This document shows, one piece after another, positions 2,613 through 25,810 of a stretch of 64,000 bases of DNA. The stretch covers positions 4,174 to 68,173 of IMG/VR virus record IMGVR_UViG_3300037467_001298. One strand, 5' to 3'. The position numbers were made by a program, and so were the translations under genes. A model generated the notes under the pieces. That model made no database searches, was not told where the DNA came from, and saw nothing but the letters and a program-made list of their open reading frames with translations. Source of the DNA: a virus. Lineage: Duplodnaviria; Caudoviricetes. The stretch's first letter is position 1. Each line of letters begins with the position of its first letter.

Positions 2613-3113
2613 ATGAAAAATGATTTTATAATTCTTATTGGTTCTGATGGAAGTGGTAAATCAACAATAGCCGAGGCATTATCTAATGAACTTGGCTATC
2701 CTGTTGAACACCATGGACCTGTTAAATCATACCAAGAAGGAAAAGATGAATATTTTAAAAACATTCTTGATATTGAGTATTCAGTTATCAAAGATCGTTT
2801 CCATGAAGGTGAAAAAATATATGCTCCAATTTATCGTGGATACGAGGCAGATTATTTTGGTGAACTTGAATATTTATTACAATTAAAATTTAATCCTTTG
2901 CTTGTTTTAATTAGACCACCATTTAAAGTTATTGAACAGAGGTTAGAAGAACGTGGTGAGGATTTTGTAAAACAAGAACATTGGTTTTATTGTTATTTAA
3001 AACTAAATGACATCTATAATCAGTCTAATCTTCCAAAAATAACTATTGATACAAGTGTATATACTGCTGAAGAAAATGTTAAAAAAATAATCAATGCTTT
3101 AGGTTTACATTAA
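2613..3113 (+). CDS. P-loop deoxynucleoside monophosphate kinase (thymidylate-kinase-like)
   Basis: Walker A GSDGSGKST, DRFHEGEKIY (DR motif), lid RLEERGE; lies just upstream of the TS homolog. Confidence 0.8.
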   Translation: MKNDFIILIGSDGSGKSTIAEALSNELGYPVEHHGPVKSYQEGKDEYFKNILDIEYSVIKDRFHEGEKIYAPIYRGYEADYFGELEYLLQLKFNPLLVLIRPPFKVIEQRLEERGEDFVKQEHWFYCYLKLNDIYNQSNLPKITIDTSVYTAEENVKKIINALGLH

Positions 3114-3436: not shown

Positions 3437-4468
3437 ATGTTTATTATTGAAGGAGAATCATTTGAGGAAGTCTATAAAAAATCAATTATAGAAATTCTTA
3501 AAAATGGTGATGTAGTTGCTCCTCGCGGTTCAGCAACATTTGAATTAGCACCTGCAACTATTGTAATTAAAAACGCTAGAAAATTTTTAACAATGCCAAA
3601 GTTAAGAAAAGGTAATTATACTTTTCAATTAGCAGAAGCATTATGGATGTTACGAGGTTCAAACGACCTTGAAGAAATCGCTCATTATAATAAGGTATGG
3701 CGTAACTTTGAAGATGAAGACGACCCAGGAATTTTAAATGGCGCTTACGGTGAAAGACTTCGTGATTGGGATATGGGTGTAGACCAATTTATTGAGGTTT
3801 ATAATAAATTGAAAAAAGATCCTTATTCACGTCAAGCAGTTGCTATGATTTGGGATCCTGTTAGAGATAATGCCATTCATGAGAATGGGAATTACTCTAA
3901 AGATATCCCTTGTACAAATTACTTCAATTTCCAAATTCGTAATGGTAAACTAAATATGTGGACTGTAATGAGAAGTAATGATTTACACAAAGGGTCTATA
4001 TATGATATTCCAAACTTTATTATTTTCCAACATATTATTGCAGGTTGGTTGGGTGTTGAAGTTGGAAAATATACGCACTCTGCTGCCTCACTTCACATTT
4101 ATGAATCTGATGTAGAAAATTTTATTGATATTTATAATGATAAAGATGATACAGTTGTTTATGATGGTGAAGATTATGGTGACCCAAGAGTTCCACTTTC
4201 TGAATTTAATTTTGTAATGTCTACTATTTCTGTTATTGAATATTCAACAAGACAGGTATTAGATAAAGAAACATTTGATGATTATTTAGAAACTTTATTA
4301 AATGTTATTAGCGATATTAAAAACACTTGGTGGAGATCTGTTGCTGCACAAATTGCTATGTATAATTATAGAAAATTAGGTGCCACTGAAGAAGAATTTA
4401 AGAAATTCTTACCTTTTATTACTAATGAATATAGAAAAAATGTTGAAAAATGGAGGAGTTTAGTATGA
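3437..4468 (+). CDS. thymidylate synthase homolog, predicted dCMP hydroxymethylase-type
   Basis: AEALWML, YGERL, SRQAV, catalytic DIPC, RSNDLHKGSIYD with Asp at the N177-equivalent position, SLHIY. Confidence 0.85.
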   Translation: MFIIEGESFEEVYKKSIIEILKNGDVVAPRGSATFELAPATIVIKNARKFLTMPKLRKGNYTFQLAEALWMLRGSNDLEEIAHYNKVWRNFEDEDDPGILNGAYGERLRDWDMGVDQFIEVYNKLKKDPYSRQAVAMIWDPVRDNAIHENGNYSKDIPCTNYFNFQIRNGKLNMWTVMRSNDLHKGSIYDIPNFIIFQHIIAGWLGVEVGKYTHSAASLHIYESDVENFIDIYNDKDDTVVYDGEDYGDPRVPLSEFNFVMSTISVIEYSTRQVLDKETFDDYLETLLNVISDIKNTWWRSVAAQIAMYNYRKLGATEEEFKKFLPFITNEYRKNVEKWRSLV

Positions 4469-4731: not shown

Positions 4732-5949
4732 ATGAAGGTACTTGGAGCATTTATTTTTATGGGTTCTGCAACCATTGGCGTAATGAATAATGGTGTAAAG
4801 CCCAACAGAATTTTGGAATTATCAGATGGAATGACACAAGATAATGCTATGCACTTTGTCCATAACTATCCTGAAATTCCTGTTATTGAACCTGCTGTAT
4901 GGGAAAACGATGAATATTTAGAAGAACTTCGTAAAGAGGAATTCGATTTACTGTACGGAAATCCTCCATGTTCGGGATTAAGTTTAGGTGTTCGTGGTGG
5001 GCAATCTCATGAAAAAGGCCCCAACTGTCACCAATATCGCTATATGGAAATTATTAAAAAAGTACAACCTAAAGCATTTATGTATGAGAATGCTCCTACG
5101 TTGATTAGTACAGGAAAACCAATCTTAAATGATTTTATTAAAGGTCTTCCTAATTATAATTTCACTATTATTCGTGAATTTGGTTGCTATCATAATGTTG
5201 CTATGAAGCGTCAAAGAACATTCTTCATTGGATGGCGTAAAGACGTATTTGAAAAAGTTCCTACGCTTCACATGAGTAAAACAGAAAAACCTACAACCGT
5301 TCGTGATATCTTAGGAGATCTTTTCGATGTGCCTGTTGGTCACTCTAATGTATTAAATCACGAGTTAATCCCAGGTCGTCCGTATCAAGACGTAGAATTT
5401 GTTTTTCCTGATGTTCCTTATGTTAAAGGTGGAGAATATACTGTAAACTGGGTAATCTGTAATGAGTATGAAAAGTATGAGCCGCTATTAAAAGAAAAAA
5501 CTAAAAAAGCATTAAAAACTCAATTATTTAAACAAAGAAATGGTTTAGGTTATTGGGATAAATCTTCTCAACGTCCGAATCCTGATAAACAAGCACCATC
5601 AATGACTGGATATGCAAGTTTCATCCATCCTATTCATCACCGTCAATTTACTGTTCGTGAGTACGCTCGTTTAATGGGATATCCCGATACATTTGAAATT
5701 CTTCCGCATAAGGAAGTTGTTCGTCATATGGCTCAAGGAGTACCTGCTCGTTATTTTGAATGGGCATCAGGTGAAGTGCTTGCTGCGTTGCGTGGACAAA
5801 GACATTCTCATCAACAGTTTGAAGATACTCGAGTTATATTCCAACATCATACAAAAGAATTGATGACTGAATTCACAACTGAAGAGTTCTTAAATACATT
5901 AAAAATTGCAGAAGTAAAAAATGAAAAACAACAGAAACTAACGGTTTAA
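4732..5949 (+). CDS. DNA (cytosine-C5) methyltransferase homolog with degenerate motifs I and X
   Basis: Motif IV GNPPCSGLS, VI YENAP, VIII MKRQRTFFIG, IX RQFTVREYARLMGYPD. Motif I reads FIFMGS instead of FxGxG; motif X reads MAQGVP instead of IGNAV. Confidence 0.85.
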   Translation: MKVLGAFIFMGSATIGVMNNGVKPNRILELSDGMTQDNAMHFVHNYPEIPVIEPAVWENDEYLEELRKEEFDLLYGNPPCSGLSLGVRGGQSHEKGPNCHQYRYMEIIKKVQPKAFMYENAPTLISTGKPILNDFIKGLPNYNFTIIREFGCYHNVAMKRQRTFFIGWRKDVFEKVPTLHMSKTEKPTTVRDILGDLFDVPVGHSNVLNHELIPGRPYQDVEFVFPDVPYVKGGEYTVNWVICNEYEKYEPLLKEKTKKALKTQLFKQRNGLGYWDKSSQRPNPDKQAPSMTGYASFIHPIHHRQFTVREYARLMGYPDTFEILPHKEVVRHMAQGVPARYFEWASGEVLAALRGQRHSHQQFEDTRVIFQHHTKELMTEFTTEEFLNTLKIAEVKNEKQQKLTV

Positions 5950-16763: not shown

Positions 16764-17156
16764 ATGATAAATACGTTGCAAATGGTACTTGATAAACAAG
16801 CGGAGTTTCAAAAGAAGTTTGGATTTGAAGGATTAGAGCAGACCGATATTGAAACGGTCTCTTCTTTAATCCATACTCATTCACATTTTACAATGGAAGA
16901 ACTTTTTGAAATGGAAAGAGAACTTCCATATCATAAACCCTGGAAAGATTATTCAGGGTTAACTAAATACGAAGTTATAGAAAATTTTCAAAAAGGAAGA
17001 GAAGAATGGATTGATGCTTTTATCTTTCTAATGAATGTTGGGTTATTCTTAGGTTTCGATTCAAAACTAATTGAGCAAATGTATTTAGAAAAACTTGGAA
17101 TAAATCATAAAAGACAAGAAGATCCAAAACTAGGATATATTACGGAGGTAAATTAA
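16764..17156 (+). CDS. all-alpha NTP pyrophosphatase (dimeric dUTPase / T4 gp56 dCTPase-like, MazG superfamily)
   Basis: LDKQAEFQ, MEELFEM, HKPWK, REEWIDAFIFLMNV, KLGINHKRQ. Confidence 0.8.
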   Translation: MINTLQMVLDKQAEFQKKFGFEGLEQTDIETVSSLIHTHSHFTMEELFEMERELPYHKPWKDYSGLTKYEVIENFQKGREEWIDAFIFLMNVGLFLGFDSKLIEQMYLEKLGINHKRQEDPKLGYITEVN

Positions 17157-18160: not shown

Positions 18161-18189
18161 TTTACATATAATTAAAAAGTATATATAAT
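18161..18189 (+). promoter_or_regulatory. sigmaA-type promoter of the kinase-phosphatase-nucleotidyltransferase-GT operon
   Basis: TTTACA-N17-TATAAT. Confidence 0.75.
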
Positions 18190-18216: not shown

Positions 18217-19251
18217 ATGGGTAAAGTCAATATTTTAAAAGAGTTTAAAGGTGGAAGTATGGCAAGAACCTTTTTAGTCGATAAATATGGACAAAAATAT
18301 GTTAGGAAAATTGCGGCCAATGATAAAGATGGGTTAGGTATTGAAAAACTTTATAAGCAATGGAAATGGCAATTTGACTTTTGTAGAAATGATGAACCAG
18401 GAGTTATGCCTGATACTTCATTTTTTGTGTTTGGGAAGGACTCTGGTTACTATGATATGGAATATGTAGAACTTGGTACTTTTCTTGATTTATTACTTAA
18501 TGAGGAAGATATTGATGGAATGATTCTTCATGATATATTAAAAGCAGGGTCATTAATAGCAAAACCTGTAGATGAAGAACCTAAACATGATTATTTATTA
18601 GTTAATCATTTACAAAAAATGGTAAAAAGAACTCAATCACTACAACCTTATGAGTTTTACAAACATGATTCAATTGATATAAATGGAAAGTCATGTCAAA
18701 ATCTTCATAGAATATTAGAGTTTATTGTAAACGAACCTGGGCTAATTAAGTTATTATCACCTAAAAAATTATATAGGTCTCATGGTGATTTTACTTTCCA
18801 AAACATTCTTGCTGATGAATATGATTTGGTTGTAATAGACCCACGTGGTGAAGGTGCTGACTCAATTTATTATGATATTAGCAAACTTTATCAAAGTTGT
18901 CATGGTAAATATGATTTACTTTTTGATGGTAATTATAGAGTTTGGTCAGATGGTTATACTGATGTTATCAATTATGAGATACTTGATGGTGTAGAAAAAT
19001 TCAATGCTATTTATGATGAGCTTCGTGAACTAATACCTCAGTATTATGAAATTGAAGATGAGCATTGGGAATTAATTACAAAATTTTATGAGGCAAGTCA
19101 CTTCATTTCAATGACACCTTTTAGATTAAAAGAAAATGGAAATATAACAGCAGTCTGTTATGCAATTGGTATAGAATTATTAAATGAGGTAGTGGAGGAA
19201 TATTTAAATGTTAAATCTGAACTTAAAAAACAAGAAAGCATTACTATTTGA
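18217..19251 (+). CDS. APH/choline-kinase-fold small-molecule kinase
   Basis: Gly loop KGGSMART, VRK lysine, YDMEYV hinge, HGDFTFQNIL catalytic loop, IDPRG. Confidence 0.85.
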   Translation: MGKVNILKEFKGGSMARTFLVDKYGQKYVRKIAANDKDGLGIEKLYKQWKWQFDFCRNDEPGVMPDTSFFVFGKDSGYYDMEYVELGTFLDLLLNEEDIDGMILHDILKAGSLIAKPVDEEPKHDYLLVNHLQKMVKRTQSLQPYEFYKHDSIDINGKSCQNLHRILEFIVNEPGLIKLLSPKKLYRSHGDFTFQNILADEYDLVVIDPRGEGADSIYYDISKLYQSCHGKYDLLFDGNYRVWSDGYTDVINYEILDGVEKFNAIYDELRELIPQYYEIEDEHWELITKFYEASHFISMTPFRLKENGNITAVCYAIGIELLNEVVEEYLNVKSELKKQESITI

Positions 19252-19813
19252 TGTAGACGGTACTATCGCTGATACAATGCCAGCACATAATAAAGCATAT
19301 GAGTTAGCATTCCATTTAAACAATGTTCCTTTTGATATTGAACTTCATAAAACATATGCCCCTTTTGGTGGTAATGTATTAATGAGGGAAACTGTTGAAG
19401 CAATAGGTTATGGTGCTCAAGCGCATCAAATCATTAAGGATAAACAAGCATTATTGGGTTTTTGTTTAGATAGATTTATGAGACCCAATACTGAACTCAT
19501 TAATTTTATTAAACAAAATGTTGAGAAATATTATATTGCTTTTGTATCAAATGGTCGTAGAACAAGTATTCAACAAGTACTTGAAAAATTAGGTTTATTA
19601 TATTATGCTGATTATATTACAACATCTGATATTTTGGGCGCTGCGAAGCCCTCACCAGAAGCATATAATTATACAATGCTCATGTTAGGTGTTAATCCTG
19701 ATGAAGTAATTACATTTGAGGATAATGAGATTGGTATTACTGCTGCAACTCGTGCTAAAATAAAAGATATTATTAAAGTTAATACGGAGGATTTTAGATT
19801 TGAAAAACTTTAA
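19208..19813 (+). CDS. HAD-superfamily sugar phosphatase/mutase (beta-PGM-like)
   Basis: FDVDGTIADT, FVSNG, AKPSPEAY, FEDNEIG. Confidence 0.92.
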   Translation: MLNLNLKNKKALLFDVDGTIADTMPAHNKAYELAFHLNNVPFDIELHKTYAPFGGNVLMRETVEAIGYGAQAHQIIKDKQALLGFCLDRFMRPNTELINFIKQNVEKYYIAFVSNGRRTSIQQVLEKLGLLYYADYITTSDILGAAKPSPEAYNYTMLMLGVNPDEVITFEDNEIGITAATRAKIKDIIKVNTEDFRFEKL

Positions 19814-20546
19814 AGGTATTATACTCGCAGGTGGTAGAGGATCTCGCCTATCACCTATAACAGATGTATATAATAAATATTTATGTCCTGTTTATGATAA
19901 ACTCATGATAGAATATTCTATCCTATCATTAAAAGATGCAGGAATAACTGATATAGCAATTATTCTTGGTACAAAGTCTGCTGGTGAAACAATGGACTAT
20001 CTCAAATCAGGTAAAAAATATGGTGTTAAATTTACATATTTTTATCAGGATGAGCCGCTGGGAGTTCCGAATGCTCTGTATCAGGCTAAAGATTGGGCTG
20101 GACTAACTAACGTAGTTGTATTGTGCGCTGATAATATTATTTATGATAATTTAATGCCATTCTTAGAAATGTATAAAGGCGGAGGTTTTATTACAACTAA
20201 ATTCTTTAATGATAAAGAGGAACTAAAGAGATTCGCTGTGCTAGAGTTTGATGAAGATTTAAGTATTAATAAAATTGTAGAAAAACCTGAAAACCCTAAA
20301 TCCTCCCTAGCATTTTGTGGGATACAAATATACGATTTACAATTATGGTCAATTATTAAAGGACTGGAACCTTCTAGACGCGGTGAATATGAAATTGTGG
20401 ATGTATTAAATGAATATATTAATCGTAAAAAGTTTAGTTATGGAACATTAACCAAACAATGGTTCGACTGTGGCAATAAGGATGCTTTGTTTGAAGCACA
20501 ACAATATGCTTTCTTTAATTCGATTGAGGAGGCCCTAAACAAATGA
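19800..20546 (+). CDS. sugar-1-phosphate nucleotidyltransferase (RmlA/SpsI-like)
   Basis: GIILAGGRGSRLSPIT..NK, QDEPLG, ADNI, VEKP, PSRRGEYEIVD, WFDCG; TTG start. Confidence 0.92.
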   Translation: MKNFKGIILAGGRGSRLSPITDVYNKYLCPVYDKLMIEYSILSLKDAGITDIAIILGTKSAGETMDYLKSGKKYGVKFTYFYQDEPLGVPNALYQAKDWAGLTNVVVLCADNIIYDNLMPFLEMYKGGGFITTKFFNDKEELKRFAVLEFDEDLSINKIVEKPENPKSSLAFCGIQIYDLQLWSIIKGLEPSRRGEYEIVDVLNEYINRKKFSYGTLTKQWFDCGNKDALFEAQQYAFFNSIEEALNK

Positions 20547-21994
20547 CCTATCAAATTATTAATTCCCATAAAGACAACCCTAATAAAAAGAATATTATGT
20601 TATTCTTGCTCGAGAGAAATCTCGGCAAGAAAACTAATTTCTTGTCATATTCATATATACTTAATACTGTTAAAATTTTACAAAAAGATTTCAATGTTTT
20701 CCTCGTTGCCCGTTCATCAAGTTCAAGAGGCGCCTGGATAGAGGTAGCATTACAAACACCTATTTTGAAAGACTGTATACTTATTAATCTTGATGCTTCA
20801 GGAAGGTTTATGAGAGTTGAAACAGGCGAACAGGAGTTATATGATGATGATAAAGCCGCATACAATTATACTTATAAGTATATGGATACTTTGTTTACTA
20901 ACCTCATTCATGGTGAGCCATGGATATTTAATAATCTCGTTGGCACTATTTCTTCTGCTCTTTTTCTTGTATATGAAAGGAATCACGAAATTATACCATA
21001 CGATGAAAGAACTGAAAAACTCTCAGCAGGAGCCATGGAAACAGCCCGTAAACGACTTACAGGGGAACGTCAATTCTTCTCGTTCCGAATGATTAGTCAG
21101 AGATGTATGTATCCTTTATACTTCCTCACAAGACTTATGAGGGACTATCCAAATTTATGGCATTACTCATTCTGTCACGATACTAGCTCAATATGGTACC
21201 CATGGTCTGCTAAGGTAAATCCTCTTACAAAAAATGTTAAATGTTTTTACTTTGTAAATGATGATAGAGGACCTATGAGGGATTTTAAAGAATTCCCATC
21301 TGCGCAGATTCAAGATGCCTTTGGTAAAAAACAATTGACAAAGGATGAGTTAAATGATATTCTCAATAATAAAAAACATGATTTTATCTTTGGCGGAACT
21401 TTTCCTTATGATGTTAGTTACCGCTTGGCGGATTGGGTACGTTATTTTAATGACCTTAATTGTGATGCTACTATTCGTACTCAAACTGATGGTACTTCCA
21501 CTATTACTTGTACAGAGATTAAGGATCCACTCGAAACAAAGAAATTCAAAGGTAAAAAGATAAAAGATGAAAAGGCGTTAGATGTTATTAGAAGTATTTC
21601 TGTCAATAAGAATGTTAAACCTACTGTATCTCAACAAGAGTATCACGAGGAACAAAAGGATTATATGTTTACAATTATTTTAAAATGCTTTTATGGTAAG
21701 TATGATTCTTTAAACTTTAGGATTTATTCTTCATTAGCAAATGGCGTTATTCCTTTATTAGCTAATGACTATGATGTTGATTGCCTTCAAATTCCGTTAT
21801 TATTTAAACAACTATTAACGGTTAGAGATAATATTGATATTGAAGAAAAGATTGAATATTATAAAAATAACCCTGAAAAATATAAGGAACTATTTTGGGC
21901 ACTCTATAATCACTATGTAAAGCCTGAACACTATCAAAATGAGTGGTATGAAAAAGTGTTCAAAGAAAATTATTTTAATGAATTATATAAATAA
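20543..21994 (+). CDS. GT-B glycosyltransferase, T4 beta-glucosyltransferase-like (GT1)
   Basis: KKHDFIFGGTF resembles T4 BGT KTLDVIYGGSF; LNFRIYSSLANGVIPLLANDYD resembles ITLRVWETMASDAVMLIDEEFD; final helices IEEKIEYYKNNPEKYKEL. By-eye alignment. Confidence 0.65.
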   Translation: MTYQIINSHKDNPNKKNIMLFLLERNLGKKTNFLSYSYILNTVKILQKDFNVFLVARSSSSRGAWIEVALQTPILKDCILINLDASGRFMRVETGEQELYDDDKAAYNYTYKYMDTLFTNLIHGEPWIFNNLVGTISSALFLVYERNHEIIPYDERTEKLSAGAMETARKRLTGERQFFSFRMISQRCMYPLYFLTRLMRDYPNLWHYSFCHDTSSIWYPWSAKVNPLTKNVKCFYFVNDDRGPMRDFKEFPSAQIQDAFGKKQLTKDELNDILNNKKHDFIFGGTFPYDVSYRLADWVRYFNDLNCDATIRTQTDGTSTITCTEIKDPLETKKFKGKKIKDEKALDVIRSISVNKNVKPTVSQQEYHEEQKDYMFTIILKCFYGKYDSLNFRIYSSLANGVIPLLANDYDVDCLQIPLLFKQLLTVRDNIDIEEKIEYYKNNPEKYKELFWALYNHYVKPEHYQNEWYEKVFKENYFNELYK

Positions 21995-22039: not shown

Positions 22040-22082
22040 TGTAATGTGTTTTTTAATTTATTAATTGAATGGAGGTATTATT

Positions 22083-22739
22083 ATGAGCAGTTTGGAAAAA
22101 TATAATATTATTAAATCAGATGAGGAAACACCAGATGGGATAAGTGAAAAAACATTCGGTTATGTAGAAGGTAAAAAGGTTTTGATTAAAACAGATTATA
22201 GGCCGACTGAGATACTTGCAGAATACTTTGCATACAAATTAGGTGAAGCATTAGAAATTCCTGTTAACAAAGTCAAATTAATTGATTGTGGCACACTTTT
22301 AGGTTTAAAAAATAACCTGTGTTCAGTTCACTGGTGGGAAGAATGTTTTATTGATTCTGCAGATTATGTAGGAATTGAAGAGCAAAAAGATTTAGATATG
22401 ATGAAGTTCTTTGACGCTATAATTGGAAATGATGATAGGCACCATCATAATTATGGGTTTATAGATGATTGTATATTCTTAATTGACCACGGTCTATCAT
22501 ATCCTTGGAAAAGTTTTTATTCTGAAAACATTAATGACCTTCATCAAACATGGCATAAAGTACCTGAAATTACAAATAAATTTTTATCTTTAACAGAAGA
22601 TAATTTTAGAAAAATGTTAGAACTTCCAGATGATTTAGAACATAATATACCTGATGGAAAATTCAATAAAATTGTAGAAAGAATGTTTGAAGCACAAGAT
22701 ATTTTAAAGGAGGCAATAGCAAATGCAAACGCAGCCTAA
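22083..22739 (+). CDS. HipA-like / PI3K-like kinase
   Basis: VLIK, AEYFAYKLGEALEIP, DAIIGNDDRHHHNY, LIDHG; ATG 22083 after GGAGG. Confidence 0.8.
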   Translation: MSSLEKYNIIKSDEETPDGISEKTFGYVEGKKVLIKTDYRPTEILAEYFAYKLGEALEIPVNKVKLIDCGTLLGLKNNLCSVHWWEECFIDSADYVGIEEQKDLDMMKFFDAIIGNDDRHHHNYGFIDDCIFLIDHGLSYPWKSFYSENINDLHQTWHKVPEITNKFLSLTEDNFRKMLELPDDLEHNIPDGKFNKIVERMFEAQDILKEAIANANAA

Positions 22740-22784: not shown

Positions 22785-23513
22785 ATGGAGGTGTTTAATT
22801 TGGAATATGGGTTTATTTATATTACAACTAACAATATTAATAATAAAAAATATATTGGCAAATGTAAATATAAACCAGGTAGTAAAAATTACTTAGGTTC
22901 AGGCTTACATTTGAAACGTGCTATTAATAAATATGGAAAAGAAAACTTTTCAAGAGATATTATTGATACTGCTAAAAATGAAAATGAATTAAATAAAAAA
23001 GAAAAGTATTGGATTGATTTTTATAATGCTATACATTCTGATAATTTTTATAATATAGCAGAAGGTGGGCATGGTGGTAATACATTAGCTGGGAAAACAG
23101 AAGAGGAATTAAAACAATTTGGCGAAATTATAAGTAATGCAAATAAAGGAAGAAAATGGTCGGATGAAAGCAAACTTAATAGAAGTAAAGAAAGGAAAGG
23201 CAAATTTACAGGTAAAGACCATCATATGTTTGGTAAAAAACTTTCTGACGAACAAAAAAAGAAAATTAGTAATAAAGTAAAAGGTGGTAAGAATCCATCA
23301 GCAAAGAAAGTTTATATTTATAAAGGTAGTGAATTAATAAAAGTTTGTAATACTTTTGATGAGACAGTTCATTGGTTTTATAAACAATATCGTGCTTATT
23401 CTCTTACTACAAGTAATAAATTAATAAGAAATTTAAGAAAAAGTGGTGGTACTTGTATTAAAACAGGATTAAGTTTTAGTGATAAAAAATTAGGAGGTAT
23501 TAACAATGAGTAG
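22785..23513 (+). mobile_element. free-standing GIY-YIG homing endonuclease with NUMOD3-like repeats
   Basis: GFIY...KKYIG, YLGSG, ELNKKEKYWI, YNIAEGG, HHMFGKKLSDEQKKKIS. Confidence 0.88.
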
Positions 23514-24717
23514 GGTTGGCTTCGGGAAAATGGGCCGTTCAATATATTTTGATAGAAAAAAATGGAAAGAAAATGCGGGAAATAATGAAGCACCAATATT
23601 AATAAGTGCCATTGCAAAACTTCAACCTAATACTACTTACTATTTAATTGGTAAATCTGATTTCAGTAGGGTGTCAGATGATATTAGGAAAGAATGGTTT
23701 CCACATAATAATGTAATTGATTGTTGGAAAGATTTCAATCCTAAGCAACACGACCCAACAACATGGATTTGGGAACAGTTAAAAAATAAAAATTTAGATT
23801 ATTGTATAATTCACGGTGGGATGGCTTCTCTAAGTATACCAAATAAAATATATTGCTTAGATAGAAAAACAAAAAAACCTGACTACTCAAAACTAAGACA
23901 ACCTCTTGCATCACTTGTTAATTATTGCTCACCAATAACATATTTTTTAAATGAGTCAAAAATAGATTGGTTAACAATTACATCAGATGGAAGGTATATG
24001 CCTCTACCTGCTCGCGATTTAATTAATCCTGAGAAAATTAGTTTGGGTGTTAGAGAAGGTGTTGTAGAAATCGAACGAATGAAATCCTATGAGGACCAAG
24101 AAACAATGGTTAAGCATAAAGTAGATTTACGTTACGCTGCTGCCGAATTTCAATATTTACTTGATCCTAAATTCAGCACATTTAGGTATAACGAGGAAAA
24201 AACTCAAAAAGTTGGTTTATTCTTTCATCAATATGATAATAAAAAACGTGTAGCTGCAATTCAAGATATTATTGAGCAATTTGGTGAAGATGAAATTGCA
24301 GTATATGGAAAATGGGAATTAGCAGGTCATGATAAAAGGTATAAAGGTCCTGTGAACTTTGAAGAATTACAAGATATTTTACCTTCTGTTAAATATACTT
24401 TCTGCTATCCTATAATTCCTAATGACTTTTCAGGTAAATGGGTTGAAAGTGTTCGAGCTGGTATAATTCCGTTCTTCCATTCAACTTATGGTGATAGGAA
24501 AATAATGTCAAGATATGATAAATCATTTGAGTGGCTTTATGTTGATAATGGACAAGAAATGAAACAAAAGATAGAATATCTTGAACAAAATCCTACAGCG
24601 TATTATAGGATGAAAAATTTACTTATATCAACAGTTAGTCGTTTCCCTAAAAATGGCGCCTCATTTGTTAATGCAATAAACAAAGCAGTAAAAGACATGA
24701 AAGGTATGAGAAAATAA
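23506..24717 (+). CDS. GT-B glycosyltransferase, T4 beta-glucosyltransferase-like (GT2)
   Basis: N-terminal RVGFGKMG...NNEAPILISAI resembles BGT KIAIINMG...SSETIYLFKVI; YKGPVNFEEL, FSGKWVESVRAGIIPFF, LYVDNGQEMKQKIEYLEQNP resemble the BGT C-terminus. By-eye alignment. Confidence 0.65.
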   Translation: MSRVGFGKMGRSIYFDRKKWKENAGNNEAPILISAIAKLQPNTTYYLIGKSDFSRVSDDIRKEWFPHNNVIDCWKDFNPKQHDPTTWIWEQLKNKNLDYCIIHGGMASLSIPNKIYCLDRKTKKPDYSKLRQPLASLVNYCSPITYFLNESKIDWLTITSDGRYMPLPARDLINPEKISLGVREGVVEIERMKSYEDQETMVKHKVDLRYAAAEFQYLLDPKFSTFRYNEEKTQKVGLFFHQYDNKKRVAAIQDIIEQFGEDEIAVYGKWELAGHDKRYKGPVNFEELQDILPSVKYTFCYPIIPNDFSGKWVESVRAGIIPFFHSTYGDRKIMSRYDKSFEWLYVDNGQEMKQKIEYLEQNPTAYYRMKNLLISTVSRFPKNGASFVNAINKAVKDMKGMRK

Positions 24718-25114: not shown

Positions 25115-25810
25115 ATGACCTCTCAAATGATTGTAGATGAGCCTTATGGGTTCATCTACGTCACAGAAAATTTATTAAATGGTAAAAAGTATATTGGCCA
25201 ACATACTAATTTTAATGATAAGTATTTAGGTAGTGGTACAGTAATTAAAAAAGCAATAGGAAAGTATGGTAATAAAAACTTTAAAAGAAAAATCATATAT
25301 ATTGCTTATAACGAAAGTGAATTGAATTTTGCTGAAAAATTGTTTATCCGTTCAAGAAATGCTGTTAAAAGTAATATGTATTATAATATTGCTGAAGGTG
25401 GATTAGGTGGTAATTCTTGGGCAGGAAAAACAAATGAAGAAATTGAAATTATTAAATATAAAATAAGTGAAGGTATGAAAGGTAATAAAAATCCTGTATT
25501 TGGTAAAACAGGAATAAATGCTCCTTTCTTTGGAAAAACTTATACTCATACAAATGAGGCTAAACAAAAAATTGGAATAGCAAATAAAATTGCTCAACAA
25601 AAGAAAGTATTACTTGTTGATATTAAAGGCAATATAATTGAAATATTTCAATCTGTTGATGAAGTAAAGAAAGGAAACTGGAGGAAACAATTTCCAAAGC
25701 CAAATGGTATGGATTATGTTATGAACTGTTTGAGAAATAAGTTATTATTTCATAATCATTATTTAATTTACGAAGGTGATTATAATGAGTTCAAGTCAAA
25801 TGCGTTCTGA
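25115..25810 (+). mobile_element. second free-standing GIY-YIG homing endonuclease
   Basis: GFIY...KKYIG, YLGSG, ELNFAEKLFI, YNIAEGG, NPVFGK and HTNEAKQKI NUMOD3-like segments. Confidence 0.88.

Follow-up and report, generated by a model that had tools for sequence, protein, structure and literature searches.

Why would a phage carry two divergent genes for proteins resembling the beta-glucosyltransferase of phage T4 (BGT), and which of the two enzymes would place the first sugar on its DNA? The question arises from a stretch of 64,000 nucleotides (nt) of a Caudoviricetes virus record (IMGVR_UViG_3300037467_001298, positions 4,174 to 68,173), referred to here as the window, in which the two genes are:

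20543–21994, + strand: GT1, a larger BGT-like GT-B protein of 483 amino acids (aa), whose start overlaps the stop of a nucleotidyltransferase gene
23506–24717, + strand: GT2, an intact open reading frame (ORF) of 403 aa, predicted to be a T4 BGT-like GT-B DNA glycosyltransferase

The initial annotation of the window had cast GT2 as the second of the pair, an add-on to GT1 acting on 5-hydroxymethylcytosine (hmC). Our analysis led us to the view that GT2 probably represents a sister family of T4 BGT (CAZy GT63) that is large and uncharacterised, and that it looks like the phage's principal enzyme for attaching sugar and not a secondary one.

As judged from profile comparisons, GT2 is a real, if distant, relative of T4 BGT. 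A profile of the GT2 family (39 members) returned T4 BGT as its top match among PDB sequences (E 7e-4, in the C-domain), while hhalign of the family gave E 7e-6 against T4 BGT alone and 98.1% with E 8.7e-14 over 247 columns (GT2 136–399, BGT 86–351) against a 25-sequence BGT-family alignment. In the reverse direction, a hidden Markov model (HMM) of the BGT family matched many GT2-family ORFs directly (E 2e-17 to 1e-5); it did not match the window's own GT2 at E 1e-3 or better, and a single-sequence phmmer search of PDB with GT2 gave nothing meaningful, BGT being found by the family profile only. Identity to T4 BGT (GT63; PF09198; PDB 1J39, 1BGT, 1QKJ) is about 12%, and GT2 is about 50 residues longer. 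An AlphaFold (AF2) model of GT2 (predicted local distance difference test, 94; predicted template modelling score, 0.91) showed a GT-B fold, and Foldseek ranked T4 BGT first, with other GT-B enzymes close behind, making T4 BGT the nearest solved structure to the modelled fold. The agreement of profile, hhalign, AF2 model and Foldseek bore out both the resemblance to T4 BGT and the GT-B fold proposed in the initial annotation as more than the product of chance.

The motifs on which that annotation had drawn were all present in the GT2 ORF. Its start was re-examined with regard to the following site:

23492–23497, + strand: Shine-Dalgarno sequence AGGAGG, 8 nt 5′ of the GT2 ATG (23506) and within the 3′ end of the preceding homing-endonuclease ORF

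Because of this site, and because an N-terminal GK-G-S-F block (x-V/I-x-x-G-K-x-G-R/K-S-I-x-F) is kept across the 39 homologs, ATG 23506 appears to be the correct start, and the public gene call (395 aa, starting at M9, 23530, 8 residues after ATG 23506) is probably 8 residues short. The isoelectric point was also considered as a clue and set aside as uninformative, since GT2 (9.1) and T4 BGT (9.05) agree, yet the family medians are ~6.5.

The distribution of the family and the company it keeps carry most of the argument about roles. In the protein collection the GT2 family formed 60 clusters, and IMG/VR yielded at least 294 relatives. We screened 80 loci by tblastn and HMMs, many of them short fragments, and took neighbour counts from the 24 in which the GT2-like gene was flanked by at least 8 kb on either side; related contigs are among those counted, and the counts are not independent in phylogenetic terms. 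A HAD phosphatase was near the GT2-like gene in 24 of the 24, a nucleotidyltransferase in 22, an APH-fold kinase in 22, and a thymidylate synthase (TS) homolog of the T4 gp42 type in 21, the three loci without a nearby TS belonging to the window's own clade, where it lies ~20 kb off. A second BGT-like ORF was found in 3/24 loci, and neither a T4 alpha-glucosyltransferase (AGT)-like gene nor an arabinose-5-phosphate isomerase was found in any (0/24 each). The family is widespread, and its member is usually the sole BGT-like gene beside an hmC synthase and sugar-activation genes, which is not what would be expected of an add-on enzyme. The close relative L007 encodes a GT2 71% identical to the window's, together with the kinase, HAD, nucleotidyltransferase and a HipA-like kinase, and keeps it without a GT1, none being present in the locus or in its 37.5-kb contig (a fragment, estimated to be 24% complete).

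GT1-like genes, on the other hand, were rare and always partnered. We found them in eight contexts, each with another DNA transferase (8/8): a GT2-like gene in the window, L008, L009, L013, L014 and L091, and a T4 AGT-like gene in L087 and L089. As far as sequence context can tell, then, the GT2 family is autonomous and tied to sugar-activation genes and the GT1 family is partner-dependent, and for this reason we favour GT2 as the base-proximal enzyme and GT1 as the extender. On balance, we think it likely that hmC receives a phage-activated sugar directly from GT2, and that GT1 extends or complements this modification. Of the earlier two-transferase interpretation, the GT-B fold, the nearness to BGT and hmC as the predicted acceptor stand, whereas the roles assigned to the two enzymes look reversed.

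The acceptor was addressed through the TS homolog of the window and two further genes:

3437–4468, + strand: TS homolog with a gp42-type signature, predicted 5-hydroxymethyl-dCMP synthase
2613–3113, + strand: nucleotide kinase adjoining the TS homolog, candidate hydroxymethyl (hm)-dCMP kinase
16764–17156, + strand: all-alpha NTP pyrophosphohydrolase, weakly similar to T4 gp56 and a candidate dCTPase

In E. coli ThyA numbering, L143D/E together with a retained D169 and N177D are the criteria for a 5-hydroxymethyl-dCMP synthase, while D169N is the signature of a 5-hydroxy-dCMP synthase (Lee et al. 2026, PMC13326640). Placed beside E. coli ThyA, T4 gp42 and RB69 gp48 in an alignment, the TS homolog of the window displayed L143D, kept D169 and displayed N177D; RB69 gp48 has E, N and D at the same positions, and so shows D169N. 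The pattern D...C...RSND...D was present in 47 of 48 gp42-like TS homologs beside GT2-family genes, the lone exception reading RSSD with all three diagnostic residues kept; the RB69 5-hydroxy-dCMP synthase has RSQN at the RSND motif. Because the TS of the window carries the T4 gp42 signature, the acceptor is predicted to be hmC and not 5-hydroxycytosine, which supports, as a prediction from these residues, the acceptor named in the initial annotation. The nucleotide kinase and the gp56-like pyrophosphohydrolase fit a T4-style exclusion of dCTP and supply of hm-dCTP. We also considered an RB69-like pairing of 5-hydroxycytosine with arabinose and rejected it, given that D169 is retained and that no arabinose-5-phosphate isomerase (SIS domain, PF01380) was matched in the 68-kb record (77% complete); a homolog of RB69 gp55, the arabinose-5-phosphate isomerase, was likewise absent from the 80 related loci.

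Two other features of this region were observed. The hmC-type TS has a C-terminal extension of ~100 residues (about 240–343) that is not found in ThyA, T4 gp42 or RB69 gp48 and is partial in Planchet. Two genes after it lies a C5-cytosine DNA methyltransferase homolog (4732–5949, + strand), and such a homolog was present in 61 of the 80 loci (e.g., L019:12385-13599), mostly 1.3–2.6 kb downstream of the GT2-family gene. This conserved association is puzzling, as a C5-methylase should find no substrate in DNA fully substituted with hmC. In L019, a typical marine locus, a 377-aa protein without a Pfam or PHROG match (L019:11250-12383) lies between the GT2-like gene and the C5-methylase, and the gp42-type TS is separated from the sugar-activation genes by a redoxin and a dCMP deaminase (L019:6848-8144).

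The likely source of the donor is the set of genes that precedes GT1:

18161–18189: promoter-like site by the APH-fold kinase gene
18217–19251, + strand: APH/choline-kinase-fold kinase (phrog_21938, from library matches), candidate sugar kinase
19208–19813, + strand: HAD-IA hydrolase resembling beta-phosphoglucomutases (beta-PGM) and sugar phosphatases
19800–20546, + strand: RmlA-like sugar-1-phosphate nucleotidylyltransferase

The kinase, HAD phosphatase and nucleotidyltransferase of an Afh-type NDP-arabinose module are thus present at 18217–20546. In the window's clade the APH-fold kinase, beta-PGM-like HAD and RmlA-like transferase are separate genes; in most GT2-family loci the nucleotidyltransferase and kinase are fused, in the domain layout of AfhE, and accompanied by a small HAD like AfhF. 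The close linkage of the GT2 family to this trio and to a gp42-type synthase implies sugars other than host UDP-glucose. In Planchet, the 543-aa PLANC_62 (L001:7353-8984), annotated as 'Glycosyltransferase', is a fusion of an NTP_transferase and an APH/EcKL-like kinase, and the 114-aa 'polynucleotide kinase' beside it is a small HAD phosphatase. A megablast search of the 10-kb region against isolated phages matched a dUTPase fragment only.

We next compared the two transferases with one another. The initial annotation had seen little identity between them, and indeed BLASTP gave E 0.008 over 75 aa; the two family profiles nonetheless have a C-terminal subdomain in common (96.5%, E 9e-10), and each stands at about the same distance from BGT as from its counterpart. 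From these alignments, GT1 and GT2 are best read as anciently diverged members of one superfamily and not as recent duplicates. GT1 has a helical insertion of roughly 100 residues in its N-domain, and at the position of BGT E272 it has Ser, where GT2 keeps Glu. The GT1 profile had no match among PDB sequences, and tblastn with GT1 had none in 50,697 phage records. Distant GT1 homologs (tblastn E 3e-22 and 2e-16) adjoin T4 AGT-like genes at L087:8001-10922 and L089:3592-6777; one of these pairs lies in a T4-like myovirus structural module and the other downstream of a fused nucleotidyltransferase-kinase.

Thirteen residues were invariant in the GT2 family (G25, P41, N69, G105, N149, D161, D171, G268, W270, K311, G319, P322 and F323). 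Alignments gave counterparts in GT2 for three of the UDP-binding donor-site residues of BGT (S189, R191, R195, R269 and E272), namely K311 (invariant) for R269, E314 for E272 and R248 for R195. In BGT, T99-D100 is invariant across the family and Asp100 is the catalytic general base. GT2 has D161-x-R163 after a predicted strand, as BGT has D100-x-R102, with D161 invariant in 39/39 family sequences and R or K at 163, and a regional hhalign pairs the two, weakly (E 0.07). Asp161 is for these reasons a candidate general base.

Several observations weigh against the account given so far. GT2 did not match PF09198 (T4-Gluco-transf) in hmmscan against Pfam (E up to 0.1), nor any PHROG or NCBIfam model; among curated models it had only a sub-threshold match to Pfam Glyco_trans_1_2, PF13524 (E 0.005, 17.2 bits, cut-off 25), and a precomputed PF09198 match is carried by 0 of 60 GT2 homologs and by all T4 BGT relatives. 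The N-terminal (acceptor) domain of GT2 alone is not significantly alignable to that of BGT (E about 0.1), and the GG-S-x-R191 phosphate loop of BGT (G187-G188-S189 and R191) is not conserved in the GT2 clade, which has F240-H241-Q242 and D244. Full-length hhalign pairs N149/E150 of GT2, not D161, with BGT T99/D100, leaving the assignment of a catalytic base from the alignments ambiguous between these placements; it is because of this pairing and of the N-domain that Asp161 is put forward as a candidate only. In the window the gene that overlaps the end of the sugar-nucleotide operon is GT1 and not GT2, and the pairs of AGT-like and GT1-like genes resemble the alpha and beta primary pair of T4, so GT1 may be a co-primary enzyme rather than an extender. 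Finally, the screen for a second transferase covered BGT-like and AGT-like genes, and other glycosyltransferase (GT) families could be present.

The overlap of the GT1 start with the nucleotidyltransferase stop would suit an order in which the operon-coupled GT1 adds the first sugar to hmC and GT2 the second, giving a disaccharide as in T2/T6, and it may be added that both enzymes are BGT-like and that di- and trisaccharides are known on cytosine derivatives. We consider this order improbable, given that 21 of the 24 full-flank GT2 loci, as well as L007, have no GT1-like gene, that a strictly second-step GT2 would be without substrate in such phages, and that GT1-like genes never occur alone. 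A division of labour as between T4 AGT and BGT, in which both enzymes are primary hmC transferases differing in context, anomer or sugar and each hmC bears a monosaccharide, is possible, if on the unlikely side: the GT1-like and AGT-like pairs of L087 and L089 have the T4 alpha and beta layout, the two enzymes are anciently diverged, each roughly as far from its counterpart as from BGT, and their donor sites differ at the E272 position, but both are BGT-like and presumably inverting, so that two anomers would be unexpected from a single donor, and the helical insertion in the GT1 N-domain would suit a bulkier acceptor.

Donor and acceptor invite alternatives of their own. With T4 BGT as its closest relative, and with GT1 rather than GT2 translationally coupled to the operon, GT2 could be a plain hmC beta-glucosyltransferase using host UDP-glucose, the operon serving GT1 only; we find this doubtful, however, since the kinase, HAD and nucleotidyltransferase trio stands beside GT2-like genes in 22–24 of 24 loci, even where GT1 is missing, and since the donor phosphate loop of GT2 is unlike that of BGT. 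That GT2 glycosylates not DNA but a surface polymer or protein of host or phage, such as teichoic acid, strikes us as highly improbable, as its nearest structure and sequence family is the DNA-specific T4 BGT, its gene sits in the replication and nucleotide-metabolism arm, and a gp42-type hmC synthase is linked to it in 21/24 full-flank loci.

Returning to GT2 as the enzyme that attaches the first sugar, we drew on the observed fold, BGT homology, synthase signature and synteny to infer a course of events in which acceptor, donor, order of action, anomer and catalytic residue are the conjectural parts. The gp42-type TS homolog would make 5-hydroxymethyl-dCMP, probably joined by the deoxynucleoside monophosphate kinase and the gp56-like pyrophosphatase, and the phage would replicate with hmC in place of C. 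GT2 would then bind the duplex and glycosylate the 5-hydroxymethyl group, using a nucleotide-sugar; if it works as BGT does, the base would be flipped out and the reaction would be inverting, with the invariant Asp161 a candidate for the general base. The donor would most likely be the product of the phage operon at 18217–20546 and not just host UDP-glucose. GT2 would act autonomously and next to the base, and GT1, a BGT-like paralog that is more derived and enlarged in its N-domain, would either extend the first sugar or cover sites or anomers missed by GT2.

As the initial annotation had reported, a kinase and a homing endonuclease do lie between GT1 and GT2, and a second endonuclease was observed beyond GT2:

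22065–22739, + strand: HipA_2/PI3-4K-like kinase with K42, D124-R-H-x-x-N129 and D141 intact, including the catalytic loop
22785–23513, + strand: GIY-YIG/NUMOD3 homing endonuclease, between the kinase and GT2
25115–25810, + strand: second GIY-YIG/NUMOD3 homing endonuclease, so that two such genes flank GT2

In the relatives L007 and L009 no homing endonuclease separates the kinase from GT2 and the kinase ORF abuts GT2, and the endonuclease at 22785–23513 therefore reads as a recent insertion. Among the 80 loci, the HipA-like kinase was confined to the window's clade, where it invariably sits immediately upstream of GT2, and tblastn against 50,697 isolated phage records found no homolog of it. 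We rejected the idea that it is a homolog of the 5-hydroxymethyluracil DNA kinases (5-HMUDK), which are P-loop kinases (PMC8989533), as its fold is that of HipA/PI3-4K. A more speculative proposal, to which we give little credence, is that its target is hmC itself or the sugar attached to the DNA, so that this clade would carry a phosphorylated glycosyl-hmC, a disaccharide or phosphosugar assembled by two BGT-like enzymes from a phage-made dTDP- or UDP-hexose; if true, DNA-glycan kinases would form a new enzyme class, and the phospho-sugar modification of thymine known from Bacillus phage SP-15 would have its counterpart on cytosine.

A survey of BGT-like GT-B DNA glycosyltransferases encoded near APH kinases and secondary GTs in ThyS-linked metavirome clusters already exists (Pyle et al. 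2023). In that work, GT53, GT66 and GT94 were described as T4-bGT-like GT-B enzymes of 419–429 aa acting on 5hmC, GT53, which needed a HAD/APH enzyme and a nucleotidyltransferase (a cytidylyltransferase), gave mono- and di-heptosyl-hmC, the downstream GT was base-proximal in a two-GT cluster, and GT-B HMM matches were often near ThyS, APH kinases, dCMP deaminase and a second GT (Pyle et al., bioRxiv 10.1101/2023.12.21.572611). The neighbourhood of GT2 is that of these metavirome matches (ThyS, APH kinase, second GT), and we compared GT2 with GT53, GT66 and GT94 by published description. The clusters tested by Pyle et al. form hmC after replication, via a C5-methyltransferase and a TET-like oxygenase, whereas the window has the pre-replicative ThyS route; its kinase, HAD and nucleotidyltransferase are separate and of other subtypes (a beta-PGM-like HAD, an RmlA-like transferase), and it has two BGT-like paralogs and a HipA-like kinase. 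The arabinosyl-5-hydroxycytosine systems of RB69, DLP3 and HY126 (AfhE/AfhF; PMC13326640) also combine a TS-homolog synthase with several DNA glycosyltransferases, and share with GT2 loci the kinase, HAD phosphatase and nucleotidyltransferase route to a nucleoside diphosphate-sugar. By analogy, the window would resemble T2/T6, with gentiobiosyl-hmC, and T4, with AGT and BGT, in having two DNA glycosyltransferases per hmC phage. Unlike T4 BGT, GT2 is linked to phage-encoded sugar-activation genes and is probably independent of host UDP-glucose.

Three things appear to be new: the GT2 family as defined here, with its close linkage to a gp42-type synthase and the sugar-activation trio; the finding that phages of Gram-positive hosts, cultured enterococcal ones among them, possess its cassette; and the co-occurrence of a clade-specific HipA-like kinase with two BGT-like paralogs. 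The host of the phage studied here is a Gram-positive spore-former, a relative being present in a Pseudoneobacillus metagenome-assembled genome, and cultured members of the family occur in Enterococcus phages Planchet, 9183 and TJE4 (38–39% identity) and in Pseudoalteromonas phage XG4. In Planchet and 9183 the cassette consists of TS, HAD, nucleotidyltransferase-kinase and GT2-like genes; no DNA modification was reported in the isolation paper of Planchet. Genomes with glycosylated hmC are predicted in phages of Gram-positive hosts, namely the spore-former phage and the Enterococcus faecium phages Planchet, 9183 and TJE4, and the claim is directly testable on available isolates. The GT2 family would be a large sister family of BGT that is missed by current Pfam, PHROG and NCBIfam models. 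Because a phage's sensitivity to restriction, type IV systems and CRISPR depends on such DNA modifications, the finding bears on the use of enterococcal phages and on the search for new DNA-labelling enzymes.

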